The notes below the pieces were generated by a model that made no database searches, was not told the DNA's origin, and was given only the letters and a program-made list of their open reading frames with translations. Of a stretch of 64,000 nucleotides of DNA, positions 6,386-64,000 are shown one piece after another (positions within the stretch are counted from its first letter, which is position 1; each line of letters starts with the position of its first letter). The translations under genes were made by a program, and so were the position numbers. Location of the stretch: the IMG/VR virus record IMGVR_UViG_3300038679_000131, positions 34,839 to 98,838 of that record, one strand, 5' to 3'. This stretch comes from a virus.

Positions 6386-6412
6386 ATTATACGACAATGG
6401 ACGATTTTTAGA
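6386..6412 (-). promoter_or_regulatory. Phage-specific promoter, copy 1 (TCTAAA-N10-TGTCG-TATAAT)
   Basis: Minus strand tctaaa aatcgtccat tgtcg tataat; identical spacing at four loci. Confidence 0.7.
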
Positions 6413-6432
6413 GTCCTAAAAATTAAATTATT

Positions 6433-7158
6433 TTAATTTTTTATTTCTAAAGTTCCTGAAGGGTCTAACCATAATTTATGGAGTTGATAATTAATAATAC
6501 AATTACCTAAGATTTCACTGTCAGAGCGCAAAAGAGCATCTGCTAAATCCTTTATATCAAATTTTCCCCAACAAGGGGAATAAGCAAAACGAGCCCCACA
6601 ATCAGTATTATCTTGAATAGTTCTTTGAATTTCAAAGGCAAATTTTAGATCATTTTCATTTTGGATAACAAATTTAATAAAATCCCTTCCACTAAGATTT
6701 TTAAACGATTCAATCGGCATCATATATTCTTCCATTCCAGAAGAAGGAAGCTTATAATCCACAACCCAACTATCAACATAAGCTTGAATGTTATTTAAGT
6801 TTAGTGGACAAACTAATGGCATACTGCCATTAGTTTCAACAGAAATATTCCAATCCTCTTCACCAAGAGTCTCAACTAATTTCCAAAACTCAAAATATTG
6901 TAAAAGGGGTTCACCACCAGTAATAGTTACTTTTTTAAACTTAGCTTCACTTAAATACCTTTTTTCATATCCTTTTACCCGATTAAGAACTTCTAAAACA
7001 GAAACAGATTCTCCTGATTGAAGACTATTCCATTGTTTCGTGTCACAATAGAAACATCGGAGGTTACAACCAGCAAAACGAATAAACACAGAAGGAGTTC
7101 CTTGACCAAAGAAATTCACTTCTCCGTCGAATCCCATGAACATTTCAGCGAGTCTCAT
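6433..7158 (-). CDS. queE: 7-carboxy-7-deazaguanine synthase (radical SAM)
   Basis: DGEV..QGTPSVFIRFAGCNLRCFYCDT, TGGEPL, VETNG, QLHK. Confidence 0.93.
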   Translation of the reverse strand: MRLAEMFMGFDGEVNFFGQGTPSVFIRFAGCNLRCFYCDTKQWNSLQSGESVSVLEVLNRVKGYEKRYLSEAKFKKVTITGGEPLLQYFEFWKLVETLGEEDWNISVETNGSMPLVCPLNLNNIQAYVDSWVVDYKLPSSGMEEYMMPIESFKNLSGRDFIKFVIQNENDLKFAFEIQRTIQDNTDCGARFAYSPCWGKFDIKDLADALLRSDSEILGNCIINYQLHKLWLDPSGTLEIKN

Positions 7159-8532: not shown

Positions 8533-8739
8533 TTACCTAGACCCAGACCCAGACCCAGACCTAGACCTAGACCAAGACCAAGACCAAGACCCAGACACAG
8601 ACCAATACCCAGACCTAGACCCAGACCTAGACCTAGACCAAGACCAAGACCCAGACCCAGACCCAGACCAAGACCAAGACCCAGACCTAGACTTAGACCC
8701 TGCAGAATCAAGCCCAATTCTCAAAGTGGTGGCGTTCAT
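8533..8739 (-). CDS. Ser-alternating low-complexity peptide (SW/SG/SR dipeptide repeats)
   Basis: ATGA overlap with the upstream gene; ...SRSGSWSWSGSGSGSWSWSRSRSG... Confidence 0.55.
   Translation of the reverse strand: MNATTLRIGLDSAGSKSRSGSWSWSGSGSGSWSWSRSRSGSRSGYWSVSGSWSWSWSRSRSGSGSGSR
8536..8700. repeat. Tandem hexamer repeat AGACC(C/A/T), about 27 units
   Basis: Directly visible: agaccc agaccc agacct agacca ... Confidence 0.95.
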
Positions 8740-9112: not shown

Positions 9113-9200
9113 TTGACAAAATGCAGTTCTCAGAGTTTTTTATTTATGCCGTACAGCGATGGGAAATGCCTCTTGGCCGTTTTAAAATTTGAAATGAATA

Positions 9201-10445
9201 TCAATCATCATCAAAATTATTTCCTTTTAAAAATATGTGGTTGGGCCAAAGTTCTTTTGCTTCTTCTTTAGAAAGGATATATTCAGTATGTTTGATTGTC
9301 CCTTCCCCATGAACTTCGGGAAGATATATGTCAGTATCCTGCTCAGTATCTACAAAATAGTCAATTATCACTTTATTCCAAAACCAATCTTGTAATAAAA
9401 CCTTTGTAGATACTTTAAATTTTCGATACTGTTTTTTCTTCCAATTTAAGGAACCGATAACATATCCTACCCATCTACTTGTATATCCACTTATTCCGCC
9501 ATGTGCTTCTGCAAAGTCATAGAGAATCATAGACGCTTTAATTAAATCATTTTCTTCCTTTTCATTCTCAATTGAAAACATCATATCATATCTTTCAGTA
9601 AGAACATGGGTTACTACTTTAAGTAATTCTTCATCCCTTTTAGTCCTTTTAAGTTTGAAATCTTTTTCAGCTTCCTCTTCCATTTTCATTTTTTGAACTT
9701 CAATTGCTGCGGTAAGATTTGGGGGATTATGATAAAAATGCATAAATATCGACTTATCTTTTAGGTAAGAAGCTTGTTCATAAAACAAAACATCAAGTAA
9801 TTTTTTCTTTGCCAAAAATTCTTTGTTATACGGAAGATAATTACTTGAATAAGCAGCTTTACAATATCTTTTTATTGTATCAATTATTTCATCTACTGTA
9901 AAAGACTGATTTAATTCTCGTAATTCAATTACCGGAACTTTAGAGAAGAAGGTACCTGCAATTAGCTTTCGCAAAGATTTAACAGTTCTCTTTAAGGTTT
10001 CAGTAGGTACAGGATAGACACCATTAATAGGTTCGGGTATTTTAATATTTGGAGTGCATTCAAGACCATTCCAATAATTGAGAATTTTTAAAATTGAAGG
10101 TGGAATAGTTAAAAATGAGGACAAATCCTTTGGTTTTTTCTTTCTACGGTTCATTGTTTCTTTAATACCCTTTGTTGCAATCTCAACAATCGACGGTTCA
10201 ATGATTTCTCTCTTACGCAAACGAGCCATTTTAGTCTCCTTCTGCAAAGTGATAAAGTTACTACGTCCATCTTGTTTAGATTTTTTAATACAAAGTTTCC
10301 CTTGCTCTTGTAAAGAGCAAAGGATTCTTTGTGTTCGTCGATATGATAGTTGTAAATAATGACAAAGTTCATTATAAGAAAAGAATTTGTTTGGATGTTT
10401 GGCAAGCAGTTCCAATAACAGTTCTGGTTTTTTAGATATTCTCAT
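9201..10445 (-). CDS. Putative replication initiator or DNA-binding protein with N-terminal winged HTH
   Basis: FSYNELCHYLQLSYRRTQRILCSLQEQGKLCI (wHTH); ILNYWN motif of initiator C-terminal domains; next to DnaB and primase. Confidence 0.5.
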   Translation of the reverse strand: MRISKKPELLLELLAKHPNKFFSYNELCHYLQLSYRRTQRILCSLQEQGKLCIKKSKQDGRSNFITLQKETKMARLRKREIIEPSIVEIATKGIKETMNRRKKKPKDLSSFLTIPPSILKILNYWNGLECTPNIKIPEPINGVYPVPTETLKRTVKSLRKLIAGTFFSKVPVIELRELNQSFTVDEIIDTIKRYCKAAYSSNYLPYNKEFLAKKKLLDVLFYEQASYLKDKSIFMHFYHNPPNLTAAIEVQKMKMEEEAEKDFKLKRTKRDEELLKVVTHVLTERYDMMFSIENEKEENDLIKASMILYDFAEAHGGISGYTSRWVGYVIGSLNWKKKQYRKFKVSTKVLLQDWFWNKVIIDYFVDTEQDTDIYLPEVHGEGTIKHTEYILSKEEAKELWPNHIFLKGNNFDDD

Positions 10446-30887: not shown

Positions 30888-31412
30888 TCAGCCATTGTCT
30901 TCCTCCAATGGTTCCACATCAGACCTATACTCACAAAATAGGTCTGAGATAGCCATCTTCCTAATAAAATCTACAGATTCTTTTACCCCACCAGAACAGT
31001 TGGAAGTATCAAGTCTGGTTACATGACAAATTAATTGGGAAACTATCCTGTCATCTGCTTTTGCATTAAAACTGCCACAATGGAGTGGCCAGCAAGAAAA
31101 ATCAAAATTGGCCCCGTGCAAATTGGCCTCTCGCAAATTGGCCTCTCGCAAATCGGCCCATCTCAAATTGGCCTCTCGCAAATCGGCCCCGTGCAAATTG
31201 GCCTCTCGCAAATTGGCCCCGTGCAAATTGGCCTCTCGCAAATCGGCCCATCTCAAATTGGCCCCGTGCAAATTGGCCTCTCGCAAATCGGCCCATCTCA
31301 AATTGGCCTCTCGCAAATTGGCCCCGTGCAAATTGGCCTTTTGTCCTTTACTACTGTCATTCAACCATTTTTTATGTTCTTTTAAAATTTTAGCCGATTC
31401 TTTTTTATCCAT
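30888..31412 (-). CDS. Pentapeptide-repeat protein
   Basis: A(N/D)L(R/H)(E/G/W) repeats, about 15 units. Confidence 0.92.
31106..31338. repeat. 15-nt tandem repeats encoding the pentapeptides
   Basis: Units aattggcctctcgca, aattggccccgtgca and aatcggcccatctca. Confidence 0.9.
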
Positions 31413-41161: not shown

Positions 41162-43654
41162 ATGCAACATAGATGTGCTTTAATTCCAGTTGTAGGGAAG
41201 CTCCCAGAAAAATACCTCCTCCGAGACGACTTCACCACGGCTCTCGCCGCGCCCCTCCCGGCAACCTTCCCCATGTCTCCGGGGCCTGGAATCTGGACGC
41301 CCCGGGATGTGGAGAACAAAATCGCCATCGCCTCTGGTTGGGCAGAGTTCACCCCCCAGGCGTCCCCGGTTTATGCCGAGCAGGATTTGATTTGCAAGAA
41401 TGTCCCCGTTACCAGGGAGGCTGGGGCGATCATTGTAGCCCAATGGCGCTGCACTACGGATGGAAGCCACTATCCCCTGGCCTTATTAACCTCCCAGACG
41501 CCGAGTTGGAATCACACTAACGTCAACGCCGGGTTCTGGCGGGGGGCGGCGGGGGCCTTGTATGGGATCGCCAATTCAACCTCTTACGGCAAAATTGCCG
41601 ACTTTGTTGCTGACGGGACAATTTACAATCTGATTATCGATTTGCGGGCTGCTGGGGTTTATCTCTATATGCAGGGCGGGACCTATACCTATCCCGAACT
41701 GGTTTTTTCTTCCATTGCTGGAACGGGTACGCCTCTCTATGTGGGGGCGGCAGGGTACGATGCTGCGTTCGGGGTGAATTTTATCAGAGTCCCCCAGGAG
41801 AAATTGCTGTTTGCGCCGGAGGTGTCAGACGGTTTTAGTATAGACGGTGAGTCCGATGCCCTGGCTCATGCCGAGACTTTCGGGCTGGGCGCGGGCGGCG
41901 GCGAGAAGTTCTGGCATTACCGTGACCCGTACCGGAATACCAAAGCCCTGACACTCAAGGGCCAGTTGCATTGTCATACCACCAATTCGGACGGGGTTGA
42001 TACCCCAATAGCCCTGGTCACGGCCTACAAGAATGCCGGGTATCATTTTATCGGAGTGACAGATCATTACAACGGCACGACGTATCCTAATTTCACCGTC
42101 GACCCTGGGGTGTCAGGGATCACGTTTCTACCCAGTTGCGAAGGCGGCGGAACTTCGGTTGAATTGCTGTGCTGGAATGTGTCACAGGGCTACAGTGCGG
42201 CCACTCAGGTCGTGATTGATGCGGTTCTGGCTGAAGGTGGGATGATCGGCTTGCCCCATCCTAATTATGAGACACCTATCACCACGGCTTTTACTTACCT
42301 TTGGAGCCGTGGGTTGCACCTGATCGAGGCTTATAACGGAGCTGTGTATAACGGTGTTAGCGGCCCTGCTGCTGGCGAGGGCCGGGCTCAATGGGATGCT
42401 CACCTGAGTCTGCATAGGATATTCTACGGGATATTTACTGATGATTGCCATGATATTTCCGATCCAGGCGGATTCGATAATGGCTGGGTTATCGTTTTTG
42501 CCGACACGAACACCCCGGCAGCCATAGTTGATGCCCTGAAAAAGGGCAATTTCTATGGCAGTAACGGGCCTGATTTTTCTCAGTCCTTTGACCGGGAGAC
42601 AGGGGTTATTACGGTGACCACCTCCGCTGCGGCTACCATCCGGTTTATTGGGGCGGGTGGGGCGGTGCTGCAAACCACCAATGATGTGACTACGGAGACT
42701 TATACATTGGTGGGGACCGAACTTTATGTACGGGCTGAGGTGATCCGCAATTCCGATAGCAAGTGGGCCTGTGGTCAACCGATCATGCGGGAGACCTGGA
42801 GCCTGAGCGGCGGGCAAATGCTGAATACGCCCCCGATGCCTAATGCCAATCTGATCGGCAACAGCACTTTTGATGATGGCTCATGGTGGTCTGTGGATAC
42901 CCCGACCGATTGGGCCATTTCCGGGGGGACAGCTAACAAGGCGGCTGGGGCCTCCGCCAGGCGGCTATACAAATCGTCTCTTATAACCCTGGGCCGGTTT
43001 TATCAACTGACCTGGGACATCTTGAACCGGACGGCGGGGAACTTTTTTTCTACTATCCAATATTCCAGCAAGTACCGGACGGCAGACGGTTCCTATGTTG
43101 ATTATTTGTTTTCCTTGTCAGGACAAACCTTTGCCATATATGGCGATGCGGCGTCTGCTGGGTCCATTGACAATGTTTTCCTGGAAGAAGTGCCGTTCAC
43201 GGCCTGCATCAAGGCCATTGAGTCGTCAACCCCGGATACGGAGGTGGGTATTGACTTGATGACGGTGCCCTCGGCCAGCATGGCAGGGTTTATTCTAAGC
43301 GCCGATCATCCTGATTACCCGTGCAATTTTGTCCTGGCTTTATTGGTCAGGACGAACCCCGGCGACTTTGTTTATCTAATTAAGTACGTGAACGGGGTGC
43401 CGACCCAAGTGTTCTCCACGTCAACAAGTTTTGCCGATGGCCGCCGCCTGATCGCCCGGAAATTCGGCAACAATTATTTCCTGTCGCAGCACGGAGGCTA
43501 TGTCAACACTGGCGTGGTTGCCGATGCCGGGATCATCAATAATCGTTATTTCGGTCTGTTCACCCCGGACCCATTGGTTCGGTTTGATAACTGGCTGTTG
43601 CGGCCAACGGGCACTGGGCAGGAGTATTCGTGGTTTAATCGGTTTTTGAGGTAG
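41162..43654 (+). CDS. Multidomain protein with a PHP (CehA/McbA-like) metallohydrolase domain and beta-sandwich/CBM-like domains; start reassigned to ATG 41162
   Basis: KGQLHCHT..SDG, GVTDH, PHP, EAYN, TDDCH, GNFYGSNGP; NLIGNSTFD CBM-like start; GC-rich DNA. Confidence 0.7.
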   Translation: MQHRCALIPVVGKLPEKYLLRDDFTTALAAPLPATFPMSPGPGIWTPRDVENKIAIASGWAEFTPQASPVYAEQDLICKNVPVTREAGAIIVAQWRCTTDGSHYPLALLTSQTPSWNHTNVNAGFWRGAAGALYGIANSTSYGKIADFVADGTIYNLIIDLRAAGVYLYMQGGTYTYPELVFSSIAGTGTPLYVGAAGYDAAFGVNFIRVPQEKLLFAPEVSDGFSIDGESDALAHAETFGLGAGGGEKFWHYRDPYRNTKALTLKGQLHCHTTNSDGVDTPIALVTAYKNAGYHFIGVTDHYNGTTYPNFTVDPGVSGITFLPSCEGGGTSVELLCWNVSQGYSAATQVVIDAVLAEGGMIGLPHPNYETPITTAFTYLWSRGLHLIEAYNGAVYNGVSGPAAGEGRAQWDAHLSLHRIFYGIFTDDCHDISDPGGFDNGWVIVFADTNTPAAIVDALKKGNFYGSNGPDFSQSFDRETGVITVTTSAAATIRFIGAGGAVLQTTNDVTTETYTLVGTELYVRAEVIRNSDSKWACGQPIMRETWSLSGGQMLNTPPMPNANLIGNSTFDDGSWWSVDTPTDWAISGGTANKAAGASARRLYKSSLITLGRFYQLTWDILNRTAGNFFSTIQYSSKYRTADGSYVDYLFSLSGQTFAIYGDAASAGSIDNVFLEEVPFTACIKAIESSTPDTEVGIDLMTVPSASMAGFILSADHPDYPCNFVLALLVRTNPGDFVYLIKYVNGVPTQVFSTSTSFADGRRLIARKFGNNYFLSQHGGYVNTGVVADAGIINNRYFGLFTPDPLVRFDNWLLRPTGTGQEYSWFNRFLR

Positions 43655-43793: not shown

Positions 43794-44588
43794 ATGATCC
43801 TTTCAGTAATTATCCCCTCATGGAAAGACCCTTATTTAATTAAAACTATTAATTCTCTTTTGACAAGTTCTGAGTTAGGGGGCAAGTTAGAAATCATAGC
43901 AGTATTGGATGGTTACTGGCCGACTTTCCAGCTTGTTGAAGAACCAAGAGTTCGTTATATTCATCTTGGCAAGAATAGAGGAATGAGAGGAGCGATTAAT
44001 GCTGGGGTTGATATAGCAAGAGGAGAATTTATCTGTCGGGCAGATGAACATTGCTTATTTGGACAGGGTTGGGATAGGATAATGACAGAAAGTTGTAAAC
44101 CAAATTGGATTATGACTTCTAGAAGATACTTTCTTGATCCGGTTAAGTGGGAAATAATGAAAGAACAAGGTTATGTTGATTATGAGAAATTAGTTATTCA
44201 AGAAGGAATTAAATTTTCTGGTCAAAGGTGGAGGAGCAGAGATAAAGAAAGAAAAGATATAATGGTTGATGGTACTATGGCTATGCAGGGTTCAGTTTGG
44301 CTTATGCCAAGACAATGGTGGAAAGATGTAATAGGTGAATTGCAGACTGAGGGATATGGTCCTCACTACCAGGATTCTCATGAGATGGTTTTCAAGACGT
44401 GGAAAGCAGGTGGAAGTTTAATGCTTAACAAAAGTACTCACTTTGCTCATAAACATAGAAGTTTTTCCAGAACACATAATGATGGAACAGTAGATAATCC
44501 AGCTAATAAAGAGGCTGGATGGAAATATTCACTTGATGTTTGGCGGGAATATTATGAATCGGAAATAAGACCTCGTTGGGGGATTTAA
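43794..44588 (+). CDS. GT-A glycosyltransferase (GT2/ppGalNAc-T-like)
   Basis: LSVIIPS, RGMRGAINAG, RADEHC, QGSVW, EMVFKTWKAGG...FAHKHR. Confidence 0.85.
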   Translation: MILSVIIPSWKDPYLIKTINSLLTSSELGGKLEIIAVLDGYWPTFQLVEEPRVRYIHLGKNRGMRGAINAGVDIARGEFICRADEHCLFGQGWDRIMTESCKPNWIMTSRRYFLDPVKWEIMKEQGYVDYEKLVIQEGIKFSGQRWRSRDKERKDIMVDGTMAMQGSVWLMPRQWWKDVIGELQTEGYGPHYQDSHEMVFKTWKAGGSLMLNKSTHFAHKHRSFSRTHNDGTVDNPANKEAGWKYSLDVWREYYESEIRPRWGI

Positions 44589-45448
44589 TGAAAATTTTAA
44601 TTACTGGTTGTGGTGGAATGTTGGGGGAAGCAGTATATAAAGAACTTAAAGAAGACCATACAGTTTTTGCTACTGACATAGATTTGAATGAAGATTGGCT
44701 TACTTTTCTTGATGTTCGGTACCCTATTTTAAAAGATTACTCAAAACCTGATATAATTATTCATCTTGCAGCCCTTACAAGAATGGAGTATTGTCAATTA
44801 AATCCAGAAGCCTCCTACGATACTAATCTCATTGGCACTAATAAAATGGTTCAAATAGCAAAGGATCATGATATTCCTTTTGTGTATATCTCATCGGCTG
44901 GGATATTTGATGGTAAAAAAGAATATTATCTTGAGAATGACAAACCAAATCCATTAAGTGTTTATGCAAAATCTAAATATGCCGGGGAGTTAATGTCATT
45001 AACACATTATAAAACTACTGTGATTAGGGCTGGTTGGATGATTGGAGGTGGACCAAAGAAAGATAAGATGTTTATAAATAAATTAATTAAGCAAATTCAG
45101 TCTGGAGCAAAAGAATTGTTTGTAGTAAAAGATAAATTTGGCACACCTACTTATACCTATGATTTGGCAAAACTGATTCGTTATCTTATTAGTAATCATA
45201 GGTACGGAATTTATCATGGAACTTGCTCTGGCGGTGGATCTAGGGTAGAAATTGCTAGAGAATTATTAAAAGATTTGTGTTTAGAAGGGAAGATTAAACT
45301 TAATGCTGTTGATTCTGACTATTTTAAAGATGAATATTTTGCTATGCGACCAAGGTCTGAAATGTTGGTAAGCACAAAAATAAATTCAAATCGCTCATGG
45401 GAAGAATGCTTGAAGGAATACATCAATAAATTTGAGTGGAAAATATGA
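44588..45448 (+). CDS. rmlD: dTDP-4-dehydrorhamnose reductase-like SDR
   Basis: ITGCGGMLG, HLAALT, YISS..IFDG, PLSVYAKSK, D.FGTPTYT.DLA, A.RP. Confidence 0.85.
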   Translation: MKILITGCGGMLGEAVYKELKEDHTVFATDIDLNEDWLTFLDVRYPILKDYSKPDIIIHLAALTRMEYCQLNPEASYDTNLIGTNKMVQIAKDHDIPFVYISSAGIFDGKKEYYLENDKPNPLSVYAKSKYAGELMSLTHYKTTVIRAGWMIGGGPKKDKMFINKLIKQIQSGAKELFVVKDKFGTPTYTYDLAKLIRYLISNHRYGIYHGTCSGGGSRVEIARELLKDLCLEGKIKLNAVDSDYFKDEYFAMRPRSEMLVSTKINSNRSWEECLKEYINKFEWKI

Positions 45449-46182
45449 AGAACTTAGTGGTTTTTATTACTCCACAAAAGAAATTCTTTGGTGAATATGT
45501 TCAATTAGTTAAGGTGCTGATTGATAACAGTCTTGATTTGGGGTGGAAACCAGAAGATATTTTATTAGTGACAAATTTTTCTTTTCGATATAATGGTGTT
45601 AAATCTACTAGAGTCCACAATGAGAATTACTGTGCTTGTCGTCCCCGATCTATTAAAACAAGTGTGATTCCTCATCTTATTGATAGAGGAATTGTAAAGA
45701 AGGGGGAGATTTATTGGAATCATGATCTTGATGCTTTTCAGATGAACTCTTTCAAAGAAGAAGATTTAGGTTTAGAATCAGTAGATATGGGACTTACTGA
45801 TTATGGCTGGAAGAAGAGGTGGTGTTTTGGAAGTTATTTTTTCAAAGAAAGTGCGAAAGACATATTTGAATTAACCTGTCCTATTATTCATTCTGATATT
45901 GAAGATGAAGAAGCTATACAAAAGTTACAAAATGACAATATTAATTCCTTCAATGAACGTCATAAGAGATTGAATATTACTTACAATTTCGGTATGAGAA
46001 AGGTAGAAGATAATTATCAAAGAGCAGAAAAACCAATAAAAGTTGTGCATTTTCATCCTACTTATAAATTAGTAAGAACTTGGGACGTTTTTGTCCTTGG
46101 TAAAAATGGGTTAAATATGCCTTTAGTAAATGAAAGGTTAATAGGAGTGTTCAAACAAAATGGAATCAACGGAATTAGGTAA
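45445..46182 (+). CDS. GT-A glycosyltransferase (GT8/GT77-like)
   Basis: HDLD DxD motif, LNITYN, VVHFHP. Confidence 0.6.
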   Translation: MKNLVVFITPQKKFFGEYVQLVKVLIDNSLDLGWKPEDILLVTNFSFRYNGVKSTRVHNENYCACRPRSIKTSVIPHLIDRGIVKKGEIYWNHDLDAFQMNSFKEEDLGLESVDMGLTDYGWKKRWCFGSYFFKESAKDIFELTCPIIHSDIEDEEAIQKLQNDNINSFNERHKRLNITYNFGMRKVEDNYQRAEKPIKVVHFHPTYKLVRTWDVFVLGKNGLNMPLVNERLIGVFKQNGINGIR

Positions 46183-46771
46183 AGAACTTGAATTTAAGAC
46201 TCCTCTTTGTGAGATTGCTTATAAGTACGGGACGGATAAATGCCCCCAAATTGGGCATAATTACACTCCTTTTTATTATGATCTTTTGAAAGATAAGAGA
46301 GAGTCTTTTAAGAAAGTAGTGGAATTGGGAATAGGAACTCGTGGAACTATGGGCAAAAGGGCTGTTCCTCATTATGTGACAGGAGCAAGTCTTTATATGT
46401 GGAGAGATTTTTTTCCGAATGCCCAAATATTTGGTGCAGACTTTATGGGAAATGCTTTGTTTCAATCTGATAGGATAAAGACTTTTTTCTGTGATGAAAG
46501 ACAGGTTACAGATTTGAAGTCTTTAGTAAAAAATATTGGAAATGATGTTGATTTATTCATTGATGATGCTAGCCATGCTGGATGCCATCAGGTTTTTGCC
46601 TGTGTGCATATACTCCCTTTGTTAAAGAAGGATGTAATTTACATTATTGAAGATGTTGGAAGACCTGAGAAAGTTGCTCGGGAATTAAAGGAAGTTTATG
46701 GTTATGATTGTCAGATAATTAAGCATTTTTCAAAGGTAAAGTATGATAATCTTGTTATTGTAAGGAAATAA
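46160..46771 (+). CDS. Class I SAM methyltransferase (sugar O-methyltransferase-like)
   Basis: YGTDK..HNY, VVELGIG, GASL.MW..FFP.A.I.G.D, FIDDASH, YIIEDV. Confidence 0.85.
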   Translation: MESTELGKELEFKTPLCEIAYKYGTDKCPQIGHNYTPFYYDLLKDKRESFKKVVELGIGTRGTMGKRAVPHYVTGASLYMWRDFFPNAQIFGADFMGNALFQSDRIKTFFCDERQVTDLKSLVKNIGNDVDLFIDDASHAGCHQVFACVHILPLLKKDVIYIIEDVGRPEKVARELKEVYGYDCQIIKHFSKVKYDNLVIVRK

Positions 46772-46772
46772 T

Positions 46773-47438
46773 ATGGACGCTACCATAATTTATTGTTCCT
46801 CAAACATGGAGATGCCAGCTTTTGAGGACAAAATAAAGGAAAAACTATTGGAAAATTGTGGAGATTTGCCGATTATTAGTGTAACTCAAAAACCAATAAA
46901 TTTGGGTATGAATATTTGTGTTGGAAACGATATTGGCGTGAGTGGGTTCAACTATTTTAGGCAGTTCCTCCTGGGCTGTGAAGCAGCTAAGACCAGATTT
47001 ATTATTTCTGCTGAAGCAGATTGTCTTTATCCACCTGATTATTTTACTTTCAGACCAGAAAAAGATGATGTTTGCTATAGGAATAGTAATTTATATGTCA
47101 TGCCTGATAAAAGAGCATATTTTTTCTACAAAAAAGAAGGTGCTACCCATTCTCAAGTAGTAGGACGAGAGTTTTACATTCATACTTTGAAGAAATTATT
47201 TGTAGGTGCTCCTATGTGGAGTAAGGAAGAAAAGAATTTTCCTAAAGAGCGTTGGCGTAAAGCAGATGTAGTTGATAAAATTGAATATTGGAGAACCGAA
47301 AATCCTGTATTCCAGATAAAAACCCACATGGGGATGAGGTATTATACCAACAGTGATCGTACTCCAATTCTTGAATTACCTTATTGGGGAAGTGGAGAAA
47401 AAATTTACAAAGAGTATGTTAAAGGAATAGCAAGATGA
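46773..47438 (+). CDS. GT-A-like glycosyltransferase (paralog group B)
   Basis: IIY, LPIISV.QKPI.LG.N, AEADCLY. Confidence 0.6.
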   Translation: MDATIIYCSSNMEMPAFEDKIKEKLLENCGDLPIISVTQKPINLGMNICVGNDIGVSGFNYFRQFLLGCEAAKTRFIISAEADCLYPPDYFTFRPEKDDVCYRNSNLYVMPDKRAYFFYKKEGATHSQVVGREFYIHTLKKLFVGAPMWSKEEKNFPKERWRKADVVDKIEYWRTENPVFQIKTHMGMRYYTNSDRTPILELPYWGSGEKIYKEYVKGIAR

Positions 47439-48304
47439 AACTATCTGTGGTTATTCCGGGCCAAAAAGAACCTTTAATGCAGAAAACTATTGATACTTTA
47501 TTAGAAAAATCTGAGTTAGGTTCAGGCATTGAAATTTTTGCTGTAATAGATGGTCCATGGATGGAACCACCGGTAGGAGATTCTAGGGTAAAGATTATAC
47601 AGTTTCCAGAAAGTAGAGGAATGAGAGCAGGAATCAATGCTGGAATTGCCCAAACTACTGGTGAGTTTATAATGAAATGTGATGCTCATTGCTCATTTTC
47701 TCAAGGTTTTGATAAAAATATGGTAGAAAATTGTGATGATAATTGGTTATTGATTCCAAGGCGTTATTCTTTAGACGATACAACTTGGGAAATAATTAAG
47801 AGAAGACCAACTAGAGATTATCACTATTTAAGTTTTCCAAATGGTGGAGGAATGTTTCCTCAGAATTGGGGGTTAACAAAAGAGGAAAATGAGATAGATG
47901 ATACTATGACATTTCAGGGCAGTTGTTGGGTGGCAAATAGAAAATTTTTTGTGAAATATATTGGTTTTTTGGATGATAATCCTTCTACCTATGGCACCTT
48001 TGCAGCAGAACAGTTGGAAATCGGATTGAAGTATTGGTTAGGGGGAGGAAAAGTAAAAGTAAATAAAAAGACTTGGTATGCTCATCTTTTTAAGATGCCA
48101 AGACATTATGATTCTGGTGAATATTTTAAAAAGAACAGTGAACAAAATAAAAAGTCTTTTGGGTGGATTTGGGCTACAGAACATTGGATGAATAACAAAG
48201 AGCCAAATATGATTTATCCTTTTGAATGGTTGATTGAGAAGTTTTGGCCTGTTCCTACTTGGCCTGAAGATAAAAAACAATGGAGGAATTATGAAATTAA
48301 TTGA
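47435..48304 (+). CDS. GT-A glycosyltransferase (GT2/ppGalNAc-T-like)
   Basis: LSVVIP, RGMRAGINAG, KCDAHC, QGSCW, EQLEIGLKYWLGGG...YAHLFK. Confidence 0.85.
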   Translation: MKLSVVIPGQKEPLMQKTIDTLLEKSELGSGIEIFAVIDGPWMEPPVGDSRVKIIQFPESRGMRAGINAGIAQTTGEFIMKCDAHCSFSQGFDKNMVENCDDNWLLIPRRYSLDDTTWEIIKRRPTRDYHYLSFPNGGGMFPQNWGLTKEENEIDDTMTFQGSCWVANRKFFVKYIGFLDDNPSTYGTFAAEQLEIGLKYWLGGGKVKVNKKTWYAHLFKMPRHYDSGEYFKKNSEQNKKSFGWIWATEHWMNNKEPNMIYPFEWLIEKFWPVPTWPEDKKQWRNYEIN

Positions 48305-48920
48305 TGCAATAAATAATTTAGAAGGTGAAAGTCCAATTAGGATTCCTAATACTTTTAGATGTGATTTTCCTGATTTTTTAGTAGAAATGGGGTATAAAGT
48401 AGGGGCCGAGATTGGAGTTTATAAGGCTCAATTTACAGATTTATTTTGCAAAGCTGGTTTAAAGATGTATGCTATTGACCCTTGGAAAGCTTATGCAGGG
48501 GCCGGACGTACACAGAAAGCTCAAGATAGACAAGATTTTCTTTATAGCCATGCTTGTAGAGTTCTTGCTCCGTATTCTAATTGTACTATCATTAGAAAGT
48601 CGTCAATGGATGCTCTGAGCGATTTTAAAGACGGCAGCCTAGACTTTGTATATATAGATGCAGATCATACGTTTCGATACGTTGCTGAAGACATTGTGGA
48701 ATGGGAAAAGAAGGTAAGAAAAGGAGGAATAGTATCTGGTCATGACTATTTTACTACTATTCCAGAAGCAAGAAATGTAATTTGCCATGTTGAGGTTATT
48801 GTGGATGCTTATGTGAGAGCTTTTAATATAGAAAAATTTTATATTTTTGGAAAAGCAATTCCCGGAGAAGAAAAGACTAAAGACGACAAATATCCCTCGT
48901 GGATGTGGATTAAAAAGTGA
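48291..48920 (+). CDS. Class I SAM methyltransferase (Methyltransf_24-like); start reassigned to ATG 48291
   Basis: GAEIGVY, AIDPW, DFVYIDADH, GGIVSGHDY. Confidence 0.85.
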   Translation: MKLIDAINNLEGESPIRIPNTFRCDFPDFLVEMGYKVGAEIGVYKAQFTDLFCKAGLKMYAIDPWKAYAGAGRTQKAQDRQDFLYSHACRVLAPYSNCTIIRKSSMDALSDFKDGSLDFVYIDADHTFRYVAEDIVEWEKKVRKGGIVSGHDYFTTIPEARNVICHVEVIVDAYVRAFNIEKFYIFGKAIPGEEKTKDDKYPSWMWIKK

Positions 48921-49642
48921 AAAGTATCATATTTTATACGGATAATCATCTTGAGAGGAGCAGGCATCAGGACGTACCAGTTCTTGTTCGTAAATTTCTT
49001 ATTGATAGTGGGTTACCTATTTTTAGTTGCTCATTAGCACCAATTGATTTTGGACAGAACACAGTTTTAGAAGGACATAAGAGGGGGTATCCTACAATGC
49101 TCCTTCAAATTATAACTGCTTTAGAAGCCTCTACTACAAAGTATGTATTTTTCGCAGAGCATGATTGTCTATATCATAAAAGCCATTTTGATTTCACTCC
49201 TCCCAAAGATGATACTTATTATTATAATGTCAACAATTATAGATGGATTTTTCCTAAAGATTGTTTAGTCTCTCATGATGGTCAAAAGTCATTGTCTGGT
49301 TTATGTGTTAATAGGGAGACAGCACTAAAACATTTTAAGTTTAGGTTAGATTACCTTGTAAAAAGAGAATTATTTAAAGAAAGTGATAGAAGTAAAGAAC
49401 CAAGGTGGGCTAGAAGATTTGGTTATGAACCAGGGACTAAGAAAAGAAGAAAAGGTGGAATAACTGATGAGGATTTTGAGTTATGGAGGTCTGAGTTACC
49501 TAATATTGATATAAGGCATTATAGAAATTTTTCATCTCCTCCAATTCTGTGTATAGATTACAGAGATATTCCTGAAAATTGGAAAGTTAAAAGAATTGAT
49601 GAGATTGAAGGATGGAATTTAAAGGAGATGTTTAAACTGTGA
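48917..49642 (+). CDS. GT-A-like glycosyltransferase (paralog group B)
   Basis: IIFYTDN, AEHDCLYH, SLSGLC, GYEPG, PNIDIRH. Confidence 0.6.
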   Translation: MKSIIFYTDNHLERSRHQDVPVLVRKFLIDSGLPIFSCSLAPIDFGQNTVLEGHKRGYPTMLLQIITALEASTTKYVFFAEHDCLYHKSHFDFTPPKDDTYYYNVNNYRWIFPKDCLVSHDGQKSLSGLCVNRETALKHFKFRLDYLVKRELFKESDRSKEPRWARRFGYEPGTKKRRKGGITDEDFELWRSELPNIDIRHYRNFSSPPILCIDYRDIPENWKVKRIDEIEGWNLKEMFKL

Positions 49643-50397
49643 AAGGGTTAGTATATTATACCGATAATCGCTTGCCAGAACCTATATTTTCTGCTGTCCA
49701 ACGGGAAGTATTAAAAAGTAATTTACCTATTATAAGTGTGTCTTTAAAGCCAATTGATTTTGGAATTAATATTGTTCTTGATTTGAAACCAAGTGTAATA
49801 TCAATGTTTAAACAAATATTAAAAGGATTAGAATCAAGCAGTTCTGATATGATTTTTCTAGTGGAGCATGACGTTTTATATCATTCTAGCCACTTTAGTT
49901 TTAAACCACCAAGACGAGATACTTATTATTATAATACAAATGTTTGGAGATGGAAATATCCGCATGACTATCTTATAACTTACGATCATCTTATTTCTTT
50001 GTCTGGCTTATGTGCTGATAGGGATTTACTGATAAATCATTACACAAAGAGACTTGAAATTATAGAGAAAAATGGTTGGGAAGATGGGAGAGACCCAAAT
50101 TGGGCTAGAAAAATAGGTTATGAACCTGGTAAAAAACGTAGACGTGGTGGTTTTATGGATGAACCTATAGATGAATGGAAATCTGCTTTTCCAAATATTG
50201 ATATAAGACATAAGAGGACAATTACTCCACCAAAAGTTACTTTAGACAGTTTTAGGCATTTGCCCACAGGATGGAAAGAATCAAGATTTGACCAGATTAA
50301 AGGTTGGGAATGTTTTGATTTTAGTTTGAAGGGTGGCATTAATGGTCTTAAATGTAAGAAAATGGGTCAAATAACTTTTTGGGATGCTACAATATGA
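49639..50397 (+). CDS. GT-A-like glycosyltransferase (tandem paralog of 48917..49642)
   Basis: VYYTDN, VEHDVLYH, SLSGLC, GYEPG, PNIDIRH. Confidence 0.6.
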   Translation: MKGLVYYTDNRLPEPIFSAVQREVLKSNLPIISVSLKPIDFGINIVLDLKPSVISMFKQILKGLESSSSDMIFLVEHDVLYHSSHFSFKPPRRDTYYYNTNVWRWKYPHDYLITYDHLISLSGLCADRDLLINHYTKRLEIIEKNGWEDGRDPNWARKIGYEPGKKRRRGGFMDEPIDEWKSAFPNIDIRHKRTITPPKVTLDSFRHLPTGWKESRFDQIKGWECFDFSLKGGINGLKCKKMGQITFWDATI

Positions 50398-51371
50398 GTA
50401 AAAATTATTCCCTTAGCATTTTGATTCCCAGTCGGAATGAGATGTTTCTTGCTAGAACTATTGAAGATATCCTAGCAAATATAGAAGCTGATACTGAAAT
50501 CATAGCCACCTTGGATGGGGATTGGGCTAAACCACCTATTCCACAACATGATAGAGTAAATGTAATTTATGTTCCAGAAGCAATAGGACAAAGAGCAGCT
50601 ACAAACATAGCTTGTAATCTTGCTAAAGGTAAGTATGTAATGAAAGTTGATGCCCATTGCTCGTTTGATAAGGGTTTTGACAGAATCATGTTAGAGGGTT
50701 TTAAAGAAGTTGGAGATAATATCACGATGGTACCAATCATGCGGAATCTGTGGGCCTTCGATTGGAAGTGCTATCATTGTGGGAAAAGAACATATCAAGG
50801 ACCAACCCCAACAAAGTGTGTTCAATGTGGAAAAACTGATAAAATACGAAGAAAAATGCTATGGATTGGCAAGCACAACCCACAATCGTGGTCATATTGT
50901 TTTGATAGTGAACCTCACTTTCAGTATTTTGAAGAATACAAACATAGGCCAGGGATTAGGGATGCAGCAAAAGAAACAGGTTTTTCTGAGACAATGAGTT
51001 TACAGGGCAGTTGCTTCATGGCTACTAAAGAAAAATACCAGGAACTTAATCTTTGTGATGAAAGACTTGGCAGTTGGGGAAATCAAGGAATAGAAGTAGC
51101 TTGTAGGACTTGGCTTAGTGGTGGAAGAGTATTAGTCAATCATAGGACTTGGTATGCCCATATGTTTAGAACCCAAGGAGGAGATTTTTCTTTTCCTTAT
51201 CCTCAATCCGGTAAAGGAGTACAGAAGACTAAGCAAAGAACTTGGAATACTTTTTTAAATGGTTGGGAGAAACAGATTTATCCAATTTCGTGGCTGGTTG
51301 AGAAATTTTGGCCTGTGAAGGGATGGTCACAGGAAGCATTGAATAAACTTAAAGAGAAAGAGAAAAGATGA
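50394..51371 (+). CDS. GT-A glycosyltransferase, ppGalNAc-T-like, with a Zn-ribbon insertion; start reassigned to ATG 50394
   Basis: LSILIPSRNE, KVDAHC, CYHC..CVQC, WGNQGIEVACRTWLSGG...YAHMFR. Confidence 0.85.
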   Translation: MSKNYSLSILIPSRNEMFLARTIEDILANIEADTEIIATLDGDWAKPPIPQHDRVNVIYVPEAIGQRAATNIACNLAKGKYVMKVDAHCSFDKGFDRIMLEGFKEVGDNITMVPIMRNLWAFDWKCYHCGKRTYQGPTPTKCVQCGKTDKIRRKMLWIGKHNPQSWSYCFDSEPHFQYFEEYKHRPGIRDAAKETGFSETMSLQGSCFMATKEKYQELNLCDERLGSWGNQGIEVACRTWLSGGRVLVNHRTWYAHMFRTQGGDFSFPYPQSGKGVQKTKQRTWNTFLNGWEKQIYPISWLVEKFWPVKGWSQEALNKLKEKEKR

Positions 51372-51781
51372 ATGAATTGGAATTTAAAATTCTTCTGAAT
51401 GAAAAACTATGTGATTTGGCAGAGGCTATTTTGCATTATTATAATCCTTGTAAGTTTAATGGAAATTCTTGTCTTTTGTCGGATAAGATAGGGAAAGAAA
51501 CTAATAGTTGTTGTTTTAGAAGTAAATTTGATCGCAGTAATGAGGACAAGGTTTGTCTATTTTTGAAAGGGAGGAGTTGTGGATTTAGAAATATAGGCTG
51601 TAAATTATTTCTTTGTTATTTTGCCGCACAGGAAAATTTAGAGTGTGTTGAAGATTTAAAATCTCTTGAATTGATTGCAAAGCATTATGGATTGATGAGG
51701 CGCCCATTCTTAGGAGATCGCTATGCTGGAATGACGGAAGAACTTATTAGGATTGAAGACAAGGAATTGAACAATGGGTAA
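51368..51781 (+). CDS. Cys-rich protein (YkgJ/CxxCxxCC-like metal cluster)
   Basis: PC..C..CC...CLFL...C.....CKLFLC. Confidence 0.5.
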   Translation: MNELEFKILLNEKLCDLAEAILHYYNPCKFNGNSCLLSDKIGKETNSCCFRSKFDRSNEDKVCLFLKGRSCGFRNIGCKLFLCYFAAQENLECVEDLKSLELIAKHYGLMRRPFLGDRYAGMTEELIRIEDKELNNG

Positions 51782-52196
51782 ATCATTTTCTCCAAGTAAA
51801 AGTCCTTCCCTATCACCAAGTCTAAGCCCAAGTAAATCACCAAGTCTCAGTCCAAGTCTTTCCCCTTCACTATCACCAAGTATAAGTCCATCACTTTCAC
51901 CGAGTGTTTCACCAAGTCTTAGTCCATCTATCAGTCCAAGCAAAAGTCCTAGTCTGTCACCATCATTAAGTGCTTCATTACCTTCAAGTTATAGTCCAAG
52001 CCTATCACCATCAAAATCAGCGAGTTATAGTCCATCAATATCTTTATCAATATCATTGTCTCCTAGTAAATCACCGAGTAAATCTAGGAGTATAAGCCCA
52101 AGTGTTTCTCCTTCTAGAGGTCGTCGTCATAACGAACCGGGTTGGATACGTCTAGGAAGATGGATTGGAGGACCAGCTCCGGGAAGAAGAAGATGA
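51774..52196 (+). CDS. Almost pure Ser-Pro repeat protein with an Arg/Trp-rich C-terminal peptide
   Basis: (SPS[L/K/I/V])n followed by RGRRHNEPGWIRLGRWIGGPAPGRRR. Confidence 0.7.
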   Translation: MGKSFSPSKSPSLSPSLSPSKSPSLSPSLSPSLSPSISPSLSPSVSPSLSPSISPSKSPSLSPSLSASLPSSYSPSLSPSKSASYSPSISLSISLSPSKSPSKSRSISPSVSPSRGRRHNEPGWIRLGRWIGGPAPGRRR

Positions 52197-58348: not shown

Positions 58349-58765
58349 ATGGCGCTTTCTGCAAATCGTTTCTCCAGAAAGATTGTTGGGGACGTAATTG
58401 AGTTGCCAGTTTATACTGGTGTACACATTTACGCTGGTGGTTTTGTTTGTGTAAATACTGGTCATGGTTATGCCATTCCTGGTGCTGATGCTTCTGGCAA
58501 TCTCTGTATGGGTATTGCTGAAAGTGAAGCTGATAACACTAATGGCGCTAGCGGTGACATTGTTGTTCGGGTTCGTCGGACTGGTGTTTTTCTGATGGCC
58601 GCCACTAGTATTGCTATTACTAGTGTTGGTGTAGTTATGTATGTGGTAGACGACCAGACCTTTGATGAAACTCAGGCAGGTAACTCTGTTAAAGCTGGTG
58701 TTTTGGTGAAATATGTCTCGGCCACTTCTGGTTGGATTGACATTGGTCGTGTCACCACTCCGTAA
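58349..58765 (+). CDS. Capsid decoration/cement protein (DUF2190-like)
   Basis: PVYTG..IYAGG.V....GYA.P...GIA......G..G...V.V.RTGVF...VYVVDD.T. Confidence 0.7.
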   Translation: MALSANRFSRKIVGDVIELPVYTGVHIYAGGFVCVNTGHGYAIPGADASGNLCMGIAESEADNTNGASGDIVVRVRRTGVFLMAATSIAITSVGVVMYVVDDQTFDETQAGNSVKAGVLVKYVSATSGWIDIGRVTTP

Positions 58766-58789: not shown

Positions 58790-59818
58790 ATGAGTGTAAG
58801 AAGGTTCCGTGCTGATAAAATCAAATATCCCGTTTATACTGGGACTACCATCGCCAAAGATGATTTGGTTGCCATTAATGCAAACGGCTATGCTATCCCC
58901 GCCACAGATACCGCAGGATTGAGATTTGTTGGTGTCTGTGCTAAGGGAGTAGTAAATGCTGGTGCAAGCGGGGCGATAGAGGTAGAGGTTCATCGTACTG
59001 GTGTTATCAGTATGGCTGCTACCTCTATCGCTGTAACTCAACTTGGCGATACCATGTATGTGGTTGACAAGAACACTTTTGATGAAACCTCAAACAATAG
59101 CATTGCTTGTGGTATTCTTGTCAAGCGCATTTCTAATACTGTTGGTTGGCTGTATTTTGGCCCCGGCGGTATTTCCAAACCTGTTTCTGCTAACGGCGGT
59201 TACACCACATCTCGGGAAACAAATGTAGCTGGTCTTTCTTCTGCCATTACTTTGTGTACTGAGATACGTTTGGACATGATTGCCCATTTTGCTAATGCTA
59301 CTCGGCACACTACTGGACAGCAATCTTCTGCTGCTTTTGGTGCTGTTCCTACTACTTTGGCAACTTTATTAGCAACTGCCGGGACTTTGTTGACTGCTTT
59401 TGCTGCTCATAATGCTGATGCAATTTTGGGCAGTGGATGGGCATATCATACTGCTCAAGCTGCTGATAAGGTTCTGACTAGTGCAGTTACACCTGCAACC
59501 CTTCAACAGGCTATTACCCGCCTTGTTGATTTGAAGGCTAAGTATAACGATCACGAGGATGAGACTACTGGTCATGCTGGCCAGGCTTCTGTTACAGCAA
59601 ACCAAGTGGCTGCTGCTGATGCTGATTATGGTGCAGCTATCTTAGTTCCTGACAGCAAAATACAGGCTGATGACTTGATTTACTGGACCATTCTTGATAA
59701 TGGAACTGGCAATGTTACTGGGGTAAGTGCAGTTGCTTCGGAAGGTGGGATTACTTTCACCTTCTCTGCTGATCCTCAGAATGATTCCATTATCAGTTAT
59801 GAGGCCATTCGATTATAA
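58790..59818 (+). CDS. Second decoration paralog with an Ala/Thr-rich extension
   Basis: N-terminal ~125 aa are clearly paralogous to 58349..58765. Confidence 0.7.
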   Translation: MSVRRFRADKIKYPVYTGTTIAKDDLVAINANGYAIPATDTAGLRFVGVCAKGVVNAGASGAIEVEVHRTGVISMAATSIAVTQLGDTMYVVDKNTFDETSNNSIACGILVKRISNTVGWLYFGPGGISKPVSANGGYTTSRETNVAGLSSAITLCTEIRLDMIAHFANATRHTTGQQSSAAFGAVPTTLATLLATAGTLLTAFAAHNADAILGSGWAYHTAQAADKVLTSAVTPATLQQAITRLVDLKAKYNDHEDETTGHAGQASVTANQVAAADADYGAAILVPDSKIQADDLIYWTILDNGTGNVTGVSAVASEGGITFTFSADPQNDSIISYEAIRL

Positions 59819-62095: not shown

Positions 62096-62719
62096 ATGCC
62101 AACGGCTCCGAACACAGACAACTATACTGTACCTGGTGGTATTAAGCTTTTTGTGGACACTGGGTCTGGTGAGAGAGACTTGGGCAACATTGTTGAAATT
62201 GATTTGGAGCCCGGGTCAGACGTCCTCGAACATTTTACCAACCGTCCTGGAAAACGGACAAAAGACAAAGAAATTGTTTTGGAAGACAAACTCATGATTA
62301 ATTTCACAATGGATGAACCCAATCTTGAAAACATGAGATTGTTTTTCAGAGGTGGCGATGACATTGCAGATGGCATTGGTAGGAAAATGCCTATTGCTTC
62401 GTTGGCCTCTATTGAAGGTACAGTCAGAATGGAGTGTTTTCCTTCTACTGGCCGGGGTATTTCTTGGGAACTTTACTTTGGAAAAGCTTCTATCAAATCC
62501 AAGGGTGCTATGAAGTTGGACGATAAGACTTGGATGCCTGTTCCAATGGTTATTGAAGTTCTGAATAACGAAGATGTAGATGCGACTTATCCTTTTGGCT
62601 GGTATAAGATTTATGAGTCTGCCCCTAGTGGCAGTCCTTCTAAGTCTCCTAGTCTGAGCCCATCTTCCTCGCCCAGCACTAGCCCAAGTCTGAGCCCAAG
62701 TGTGTCTCCTTCAACCTAA
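62096..62719 (+). CDS. Major tail tube protein with a C-terminal Ser-Pro tail
   Basis: NYTVPGGIKLF...RDLGN...F..DE...ENM..F; ends SAPSGSPSKSPSLSPSSSPSTSPSLSPSVSPST. Confidence 0.75.
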   Translation: MPTAPNTDNYTVPGGIKLFVDTGSGERDLGNIVEIDLEPGSDVLEHFTNRPGKRTKDKEIVLEDKLMINFTMDEPNLENMRLFFRGGDDIADGIGRKMPIASLASIEGTVRMECFPSTGRGISWELYFGKASIKSKGAMKLDDKTWMPVPMVIEVLNNEDVDATYPFGWYKIYESAPSGSPSKSPSLSPSSSPSTSPSLSPSVSPST

Positions 62720-63527: not shown

Positions 63528-64000
63528 ATGCCTAGTTATGGCACTCTTGCACAAATGATGATTAATGTAGGGGTTAATCTTGGGCCTTTAGGTGCAGGAT
63601 TATCTAAAGCTACAGGTCAATTATCATCTTTTAATGCAATAGGTAGTCAAGTAGCAAGTGGAATGACAAGTTCTTTTGGGAAAACTGCGGTCGCTGTTGC
63701 TGCAATTTCTGGTGCTGTTTATGCAATGTCTCAAGCTTTTGCAGGTGCTATTAATGCTGCGGATGAATTTCGTTTGGCTACAATTAATATTGCTGCAACT
63801 ATGACAGATTGGATGATCGGAGGTAAAGAAGAAAAAAGAGCAGCTTTTACAGATCATCTTGTTTATGCTCAGGAAATGTATAAGGTTCTTGAACTTGAAG
63901 CATATAAGCATTTTGCTTCAGGAAAAGATATGCAATTAGCTTGGACAATTTTAACTCAGAAAGGAGTACAATTAAGATATGATGAAGTAAATGCTTTAGG
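63528..64000 (+). CDS. Tape measure protein, 5' part (runs off window)
   Basis: TAATG coupling; MPSYGTLAQMMINVGVNLGPLGAGLSKATGQL..., Ala/Gly-rich and helical. Confidence 0.8.
   Translation, partial: MPSYGTLAQMMINVGVNLGPLGAGLSKATGQLSSFNAIGSQVASGMTSSFGKTAVAVAAISGAVYAMSQAFAGAINAADEFRLATINIAATMTDWMIGGKEEKRAAFTDHLVYAQEMYKVLELEAYKHFASGKDMQLAWTILTQKGVQLRYDEVNAL

Follow-up and report, generated by a model that had tools for sequence, protein, structure and literature searches.

The stretch of DNA analyzed here, hereafter the window, is 64,000 nucleotides long and comprises bases 34839-98838 of the 98,838-bp IMG/VR virus record IMGVR_UViG_3300038679_000131; judged from its genes, its source is an uncultured tailed phage. 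A 12.5-kb insert, with terS on one side and terL on the other, includes a cassette of glycosylation genes. Three of these genes, GTa, GTb, and GTc, encode glycosyltransferases that resemble the eukaryotic polypeptide N-acetylgalactosaminyltransferases (ppGalNAc-Ts, family GT27), and six proteins of the 98.8-kb genome, the major tail protein among them, carry Ser-Pro repeats of the form (SPSx)n. We describe the enzymes, the repeat proteins, and their distribution across viral and bacterial genomes, and we discuss the reading that these features favor: a probable O-glycosylation of Ser in the SPSx tails of phage proteins.

The operon lies within the late structural block and is co-directional with the packaging genes. 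Overlaps of 1-23 nt between neighboring genes, from GTa through the repeat gene SPS2 (43794-52196), point to a single operon. Besides the GT27-like trio, it encodes three members of a new GT-A family (X1, X2, and X3), a GT8-like protein (u248), two methyltransferases (MT1 and MT2), and an RmlD-like reductase; the GT-A proteins of the cassette number up to seven. Coordinates are collected in Table 1.

Three enzymes resembling polypeptide GalNAc-transferases

An earlier note, made from the sequence alone, had ascribed GT27-like signatures to GTa, GTb, and GTc. The three open reading frames (ORFs) and every motif quoted for them are present in the translations: DAHC, WGNQGIEVACRTWLSGG...YAHMFR, and CYHC...CVQC in GTc; DAHC and FAAEQLEIGLKYWLGGG...YAHLFK in GTb; DEHC and YQDSHEMVFKTWKAGG...FAHKHR in GTa. 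The enzymes are paralogs, the other two being 36% and 31% identical to the GTc protein read from position 50379. All score above the cut-off of 23.3 bits for Pfam family PF00535, Glycos_transf_2 (GTa 50.4, GTb 46.0, and GTc 43.6 bits); this model of the GT2-type GT-A superfamily also covers the GT27 catalytic domain. GTb has more than 2500 homologs in metagenomes.

The family keeps the GT27-type metal site, namely the Asp and His of the DxH motif plus a C-terminal His, as well as the conserved Glu and the W..GG of the Gal/GalNAc-T motif. Across an alignment of 40 members, D86, H88, W240, G243, and H256 are invariant and E234 is nearly so; among 16 orthologs of GTa, the invariant residues are D84, H86, E197, W203, G206, G207, and H219. 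DxH[CAS] is found in 83/83 GTc-type, 32/35 GTb-type, and 40/51 GTa-type ORFs. The Gal/GalNAc-T motif, D-x5-WGGENxE, has the counterpart D-x5-WGNQGIE in GTc, aligned to WGGENLE, and only its Glu is kept in GTb (FAAEQLE) and GTa (YQDSHE). H256 of GTc aligns to the His of VGHVFR, and the loop after it is similar in GTc and GT27: FRTQGGDFSFP aligns to FRKATPYTFP, HMFRTQGGDFSFPYP to the GalNAc-T1 loop HVFRKATPYTFPG, and in the phmmer alignment HMFRTQGGDFSFP stands opposite HVFRKATPYTFP. The chains of 264-330 residues end about 45-70 residues past the C-terminal His; a Pfam search found no ricin-type lectin domain in any of the three, and no N-terminal hydrophobic segment of the type II anchor kind is visible in their translations.

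Searches against known structures place the family beside the ppGalNAc-Ts. With single sequences, phmmer against the Protein Data Bank (PDB) returned ppGalNAc-Ts as best or near-best matches, aligned through DxH, the Gal/GalNAc-T box, and the C-terminal His; the top match of GTb was TgGalNAc-T3 (E 2.6e-7, residues 52-228). With the 40-member family profile, the first 15 distinct PDB sequences matched were all ppGalNAc-Ts (E 8.5e-21 to 3.4e-13, positions 5-278); other GT2 enzymes aligned to this profile only over the N-terminal 80-100 positions, the nucleotide-binding half. The subfamily profiles likewise had a ppGalNAc-T on top for the GTb type (E 1.1e-11) and GalNAc-T4 for the GTa type (E 2.1e-10, positions 5-255), each with a small margin over generic GT2 enzymes that rests on full-length coverage. 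Only ppGalNAc-Ts were matched by the family profiles over the full-length catalytic domain.

Structure comparison was made with a model of GTc, and GTa and GTb were judged by sequence profiles. The AlphaFold (AF2) model of GTc has a predicted local distance difference test score (pLDDT) of 95.5. Its top 50 or so Foldseek matches are all ppGalNAc-Ts (E about 2e-16, template modeling score (TM) 0.60-0.69). By VIA-align it reaches Z 26.7 to GalNAc-T1 (root-mean-square deviation 2.5 A over 268 residues) and 24.8 to a second GT27 representative; the best enzyme outside GT27 reaches 19.0 and ordinary GT2 enzymes 17-18, a gap of 6-8 Z units. The best profile and structural matches are ppGalNAc-Ts, of which mouse GalNAc-T1 (8v9q/1xhb), human GalNAc-T2 and GalNAc-T4, and Toxoplasma GalNAc-T3 are examples. 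The earlier note had named, as an outcome that would count against its reading, closest structures of the glycan-extending GT2 kind; profile searches, Foldseek, and VIA-align all give ppGalNAc-Ts as closest, and this check does not refute the reading.

The GT27 likeness of the three enzymes is thus real and far beyond chance, by the profiles, by Foldseek and VIA-align for GTc, and by the conserved DxH, Glu, W..GG, and His. It is graded, being strongest in GTc, weaker in GTb, and weakest in GTa, and the three enzymes form a family related to GT27 rather than strict members of it. The best explanation is that they are soluble GT-A glycosyltransferases of the cytoplasm and belong to a family of prokaryotes and viruses; the nearest known relatives of this family are the eukaryotic ppGalNAc-Ts.

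A second family of polypeptide transferases was considered. Some members of GT60, the protist and prokaryotic polypeptide alpha-GlcNAc-transferases, are soluble and cytoplasmic, and we know of no solved GT60 structure. GT60 shares the DxH variant and acts on Ser, Thr, or Hyp of polypeptide acceptors. Membership of the three enzymes in GT60 is unsupported by Pfam, where none of them matches PF11397, which we take to be the GT60 model, at E <=0.1. GT60 is reported as the sister family of GT27, and the change from DxD to DxH is reported to be confined to these two families, both of them polypeptide O-glycosyltransferases (PMC7185993).

The CxxC..CxxC insertion that the earlier note saw in GTc is present and conserved: in GTc orthologs from 13 other viral contigs, C126 and C142 are invariant and C129 and C145 are kept in at least 90%. 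Among GTc homologs (P0123, P0134), some are split by an intein with Hint and LAGLIDADG parts, its start lying beside this zinc-ribbon insertion, and in others a GIY-YIG/NUMOD3 homing endonuclease is fused to the enzyme; such inteins and fusions are typical of genes circulating among phages. P0130, P0148, and P0163 (1200-1350 aa) join at least two GT27-like/GT2 domains and a C-terminal Methyltransf_24 domain in one chain, and look like a fused version of the cassette. A tblastn search with GTc against 50,697 INPHARED phage records gave no match, and PHROGs holds no family for the GT27-like or the X proteins.

SPSx proteins and their occurrence beside the enzymes

Three of the six repeat proteins (SPS1, SPS2, and the major tail protein) are encoded in the window, and three directly after the tape-measure gene, outside it. 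Four of the six share the identical ending SPSLSPSVSPST. The Ser codons of the repeats are a mix of AGY and TCN, and Tandem Repeats Finder detects little DNA periodicity, only partial in SPS1; the repeat is therefore maintained at the peptide level, by selection on the peptide. The capsid protein has no SPSx tail. Neither the proteins after the tape measure nor the N-terminal domain of SPS1 match any Pfam or PHROG family. In the 352-aa protein of the post-tape-measure group (G000:C1:3145-4203), two domains are connected by an internal SPSx linker, and the chain ends in a second SPSx tail.

The enzymes and the repeats occur together well beyond this phage. Relatives of GTc are encoded by at least 582 IMG/VR contigs, from which 83 viral loci were fetched by similarity to GTc, so that the counts over these 83 loci are centered on this gene. 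A locus was scored positive if a run of three or more SPSx units was encoded within 10 kb on the same strand. By this measure, 60 of the 83 loci with the enzyme are positive, as against 2 of 117 comparison loci without it (Fisher p 3e-29). The comparison loci are no random sample: they derive from 120 viral loci that matched a loose Pro-period pattern in DNA, and are a rough comparison set rather than a census; the pattern mostly matched PT or (PS)n linkers and random DNA, with true SPSx repeats in 5 of the 120. In the reverse direction, the enzyme is found in 3 of these 5 SPSx loci and in none of the other 115 (p 3.6e-5), and all 3 contain both GT27-like and X genes. SPSx proteins of the 83 loci are often 500-1900 aa long.

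Where a cassette gene stands directly upstream of an SPSx gene, it is of the GTc type in 41 of 43 cases. Of the 83 loci, only one lacks a GTc-type gene; to take GTc as a universal core enzyme from this count would be circular, the loci having been selected by similarity to GTc. Recurring partners are the X family (74 loci), MT2-type Methyltransf_24 genes (66), u248 (27), MT1 (19), and RmlD (10). Packaging and head genes of the present phage rarely recur, and the module therefore moves between phage backbones.

A close relative, G002, offers a natural experiment. Its 54-kb sequence, estimated at 77% complete, encodes capsid, TerL, and TerS proteins that are 85%, 84%, and 72% identical to those of the present phage, and nowhere in these 54 kb is there a GT27-like gene or an SPS-rich ORF. 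The tail-tube ortholog of G002 ends ...FRNYEDAT, the exact point at which the SPS tail starts in the present phage. Its ortholog of a 292-aa protein (dt292) stops at the start of that protein's 105-aa SPS tail, and the two domains of the 352-aa protein correspond to two separate G002 ORFs (52% and 29% identical), the one for the N-domain being 93 aa long.

Two further observations concern this relative. Four unrelated proteins (159, 515, 532, and 390 aa) replace the cassette in the terS-terL interval of G002 (L293, G002:C1:33000-42000), and this interval is a variable cargo slot in the phage lineage. The tail-tube ortholog of the cassette-less relative (L290:3001-4176 / L295:3329-4513) has an inserted domain of about 200 aa in mid-protein and no SPS tail; the insertion may be an alternative way to decorate the tube.

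Bacteria carry the family as well. A profile search of the contigs of representative bacterial genomes gave 120 matches, and the best 80 of these (57-75% identical) come almost all from assemblies of the Candidate Phyla Radiation (CPR, Patescibacteria): Daviesbacteria, Woesebacteria, Levybacteria, WWE3, and others, some with chromosomes of about 0.9 Mb. SPSx proteins lie nearby in 33 of the 80 loci, some with hundreds of repeats, and in bacterial chromosomes the module adjoins giant SPS fiber genes. Because its closest bacterial matches are almost all from this group, the phage probably infects an ultrasmall CPR bacterium.

Protein O-glycosylation and its alternatives

We consider it likely that the cassette serves the O-glycosylation of Ser in SPSx tails on phage proteins. 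This is the best reading because SPSx repeats co-occur with the enzyme and because the relative without the cassette is also without SPS tails; the same two comparisons lend support to the earlier note's proposal of peptide O-glycosylation at Ser beside Pro. In the mechanism proposed here, at least one GT27-like enzyme would move a sugar, in the course of virion assembly, from a nucleotide sugar directly to Ser hydroxyls of the (SPSx)n tails, with GTc as the first candidate for this attachment step. Other transferases would extend the glycan, the RmlD-like reductase would supply a 6-deoxyhexose, and the methyltransferases would cap the chain. The tail and its appendages would end up with a mucin-like brush of glycans.

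The proposed system has parallels in eukaryotes, in other phages, and in gram-positive bacteria. With GT27 enzymes it shares the GT-A domain, DxH, the conserved Glu, W..GG, and the C-terminal His, and the putative phage acceptors are, like mucins, Ser-rich repeats containing Pro. The phage enzymes differ from GT27 in that they have no lectin domain and no anchor, are predicted to be cytoplasmic rather than resident in the Golgi, include in GTc a CxxC..CxxC insertion, and are encoded by phages and CPR bacteria. The serine-rich repeat glycoproteins of gram-positive bacteria (Fap1, GspB, PsrP) are O-glycosylated in the cytoplasm along very long Ser-rich repeats before export or assembly; their dedicated gene clusters include several extending transferases, and the initiator, GtfA/GtfB, is a GT4 pair of the GT-B fold. 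The repeats of these systems are SxSx, dipeptide-like, and without regular Pro, in contrast to the regular (SPSx)n here, and they have no phage context.

O-glycosylation of mycobacteriophage virions is reportedly described by Freeman et al. 2023, and mycobacteriophages are the only phages for which our literature search found virion glycosylation reported as experimentally shown. In Che8, Corndog, and Myrna, phage-encoded transferases glycosylate the C-terminal ends of capsid and tail-tube subunits (as cited in PMC12619734 and PMC12363180), and Che8 gp110 is named by a later study among two transferases called essential for capsid glycosylation. Common to these phages and the present one are phage-encoded transferases, a Methyltransf_24 methyltransferase, and C-terminal extensions on abundant virion subunits including the tail tube; here the tail tube bears a Ser-rich extension, as part of a set with five further SPSx proteins. 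The enzyme families are unrelated: gp110 belongs to GT25, gp109 is a divergent GT2 enzyme, and gp108 is a fusion of a GT2 enzyme with a methyltransferase. Homology of the present family to the Che8 glycosyltransferases was considered and is not supported by hhalign, with probabilities of 0.1% for gp110 and 3.9% for gp109. The tags differ too, the present one being a long regular (SPSx)n on six proteins, none of it on the capsid.

On the division of labor, the earlier note had put GTc forward as the initiating enzyme. Its rank as the most GT27-like of the three and its position next to SPS genes speak for this role; the loci were centered on GTc, which biases the count of such positions, and the assignment is weakly supported. 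Protein O-glycosylation with other roles for these enzymes is possible, if unlikely. Either u248 or the X family might attach the first sugar, which the GT27-like paralogs would then extend, or all three paralogs might be peptide-directed isoforms for different Ser residues or donors, with no single initiator. The number of GT-A proteins in the cassette leaves room for such schemes, as do the presence of three GT27-like paralogs for two Ser per SPSx unit and the precedent of gp110, a reportedly essential transferase of Che8 that is not GT27-like. Against them stand the polypeptide acceptors used by all characterized GT27 and GT60 enzymes (PMC7185993; established knowledge) and the place of GTc beside the acceptor genes, its near-universal presence being due in part to selection.

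We see only a small chance that the cassette makes or alters a glycan that is not on protein (a host cell-wall polymer, one resembling teichoic acid, or a lipid-linked sugar, for example) so that superinfection is blocked or the receptor changed, with the SPSx tails as unglycosylated flexible linkers that travel with the same lineages. Bacterial ppGalNAc-T-like genes have been equated with TagN-type teichoic-acid GalNAc transferases (PMC11032452), serotype conversion is common for phage glycosyltransferases (PMC12619734), and many loci with the enzyme have no strict SPSx repeat nearby. However, the cassette translations, read by eye, have no obvious N-terminal signal peptide or long hydrophobic stretch, the operon is embedded among late structural genes, flanked by terS and terL, SPSx genes are immediate neighbors of GTc in those 41 viral loci, and cassette and tails are missing together from G002. 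Glycosylation of phage DNA (hypermodified bases) for restriction evasion is very improbable: DNA modification is a classic role of phage glycosyltransferases (PMC12619734), but the cassette lacks genes for base hydroxymethylation or any other base modification, has its linkage with genes for repeat proteins and not with replication genes, stands beside giant SPS fiber genes in bacterial chromosomes, and encodes enzymes whose closest structures are polypeptide transferases.

Several points weigh against O-glycosylation of the SPSx tails. The enzymes are only 15-20% identical to GT27 and have neither its lectin domain nor its membrane anchor, and in GTa and GTb the WGGEN box is degenerate and the GT27 scores are weaker. 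Bacterial ppGalNAc-T-like proteins have been assigned to teichoic-acid glycosylation (PMC11032452), and a GT27-like annotation is therefore no proof of a peptide acceptor; the activity of every family member is a prediction. The co-occurrence counts ignore relatedness and are not phylogenetically independent, and the comparison loci were picked by the Pro-period pattern instead of randomly. No strict SPSx repeat lies nearby in 23 of the 83 viral and 47 of the 80 bacterial loci, many of which are short fragments. The natural experiment is a single pair, one partner of which is about 77% complete, and for the proteins encoded after the tape measure, which match no family, gene order is the sole basis of a virion role.

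A bolder form of the O-glycosylation reading is offered tentatively, as one that may well prove too strong. It holds that tailed phages and their CPR hosts perform true mucin-type O-glycosylation, in which soluble GT27 homologs would read the sequon (S-P-S-x)n and, with the new GT-A family and the methyltransferases, turn tube ends and fibers into bottle-brush glycoproteins. The family would then be a prokaryotic and viral sister, or the source, of the eukaryotic mucin-initiating enzymes, and the glycan-coated repeat on the phage would be that of its host's surface fibers.

Mucin-type O-glycosylation is started by GT27 enzymes, which are generally regarded as an innovation of eukaryotes. A large family of prokaryotes and viruses that bears the GT27 catalytic signature beside Ser-Pro repeats, in viral contigs and bacterial genomes alike (at least 582 contigs and 120 matches), bears on the origin of the mucin pathway. 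A literature search of incomplete coverage found no published description of this system in phages and CPR bacteria. If true, the proposal would extend virion glycosylation past mycobacteriophages, to an unrelated enzyme family, a defined sequon, and the phages of CPR bacteria; small soluble enzymes and a simple peptide tag would also be attractive for glycoengineering.

Neighboring genes and genome context

Table 1. Genes and proteins discussed, with positions in the window except where marked G000:C1.
Feature	Position	Strand	Remarks
TerS	from 39315		packaging gene
SPS1, 296 aa	39860..40750	+	candidate acceptor; N-terminal domain of ~135 aa and (SPSx)n tail of ~160 aa ending SPSLSPSVSPST; 34 SPS triplets
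GTa, 264 aa	43794..44588	+	GT27-like GT-A glycosyltransferase; DEHC; degenerate Gal/GalNAc-T box; FAHKHR His
RmlD-like reductase	44588..45448	+	NAD(P)-dependent sugar-nucleotide reductase; PF04321 E 1.8e-50
u248, 248 aa	45436..46182	+	probable GT8/Nucleotid_trans-like GT-A protein; ESM Atlas resemblance, a lead only
MT1	46160..46771	+	methyltransferase-like protein; phrog_21658 methyltransferase E 1.5e-8; weak Methyltransf_24 match
X1	46773..47438	+	member of new GT-A-fold family; E-x-D motif; 28% identical to X3, E 7e-20
GTb, 289 aa	47435..48304	+	GT27-like GT-A glycosyltransferase; DAHC; YAHLFK His
MT2	48291..48920	+	Methyltransf_24 methyltransferase; PF13578 E 9.1e-15
X2	48917..49642	+	new GT-A-fold family; 45% identical to X3, E 6e-72
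X3	49639..50397	+	new GT-A-fold family; E76 and D78 invariant; AF2 pLDDT 89.2
GTc, 330/325 aa	50379/50394..51371	+	most GT27-like glycosyltransferase; conserved CxxC..CxxC (zinc-ribbon-like) insertion
Cys-rich protein, 137 aa	51368..51781	+	overlaps GTc by 4 nt and SPS2 by 8 nt
SPS2, 140 aa	51774..52196	+	candidate acceptor; almost wholly (SPSx)n, basic C-terminus; 22 SPS triplets
TerL	from 52335		packaging marker
Portal	from 54135
Major head protein	from 57048
Major tail (tube) protein	62096..62719	+	candidate acceptor; 33-aa C-terminal SPSx tail (~62617-62716) ending SPSLSPSVSPST; phrog_807 E 7.5e-8
Three SPSx proteins directly after tape measure	G000:C1:3145-4203, 6216-7094, 9147-9827		outside the window

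The X1/X2/X3 trio are paralogs of a new family that, by modeling, has a GT-A fold; for X1 the fold is taken from the X3 model. The trio has no sequence match in Pfam, PHROG, or PDB; the X3 model is confident and gives only weak Foldseek matches to GT-A proteins of the GT6 and GT2 type (E about 2e-5, TM 0.35-0.46). For u248 there is no Pfam match; in the ESM Atlas it resembles clusters with PF03407, PF01501, and PF05637 (feature score 0.96-0.97, structure TM 0.65-0.72). The RmlD-like reductase is the sole epimerase-family gene in the phage, in which neither RmlA nor RmlC was found, and its TIGR01214 score of 172.6 bits is below the cut-off of 224. The Cys-rich protein matches no Pfam or PHROG family and was not found in the 83 related loci.

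The ends of the record overlap by 28 bp, and the tape-measure gene spans their junction (window 63528-63998 plus G000:C1:1-2798), so the genome is effectively circular or complete. With the gene running across the ends and an overlap of only 28 bp, the label 'direct terminal repeat' reflects overlapping assembly ends of a circular or permuted genome.

Between SPS1 and the glycosylation operon stands an 830-aa ORF (41162-43654, +) of about 50% G+C, as against about 34% in the surrounding region; its PHP-domain match is weak (E 3e-4), it has no homolog in G002, and it may be a recent acquisition. Two adjacent paralogs of phrog_1731, a virion structural protein, lie 3' of the capsid gene (58349-58765 and 58790-59818), the second with a 220-aa extension; both may be head decoration proteins. 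The early region contains tandem DNA repeats at 31105-31338 (15 bp x 15.6 copies) and 8535-8700 (6 bp x 27.7 copies).

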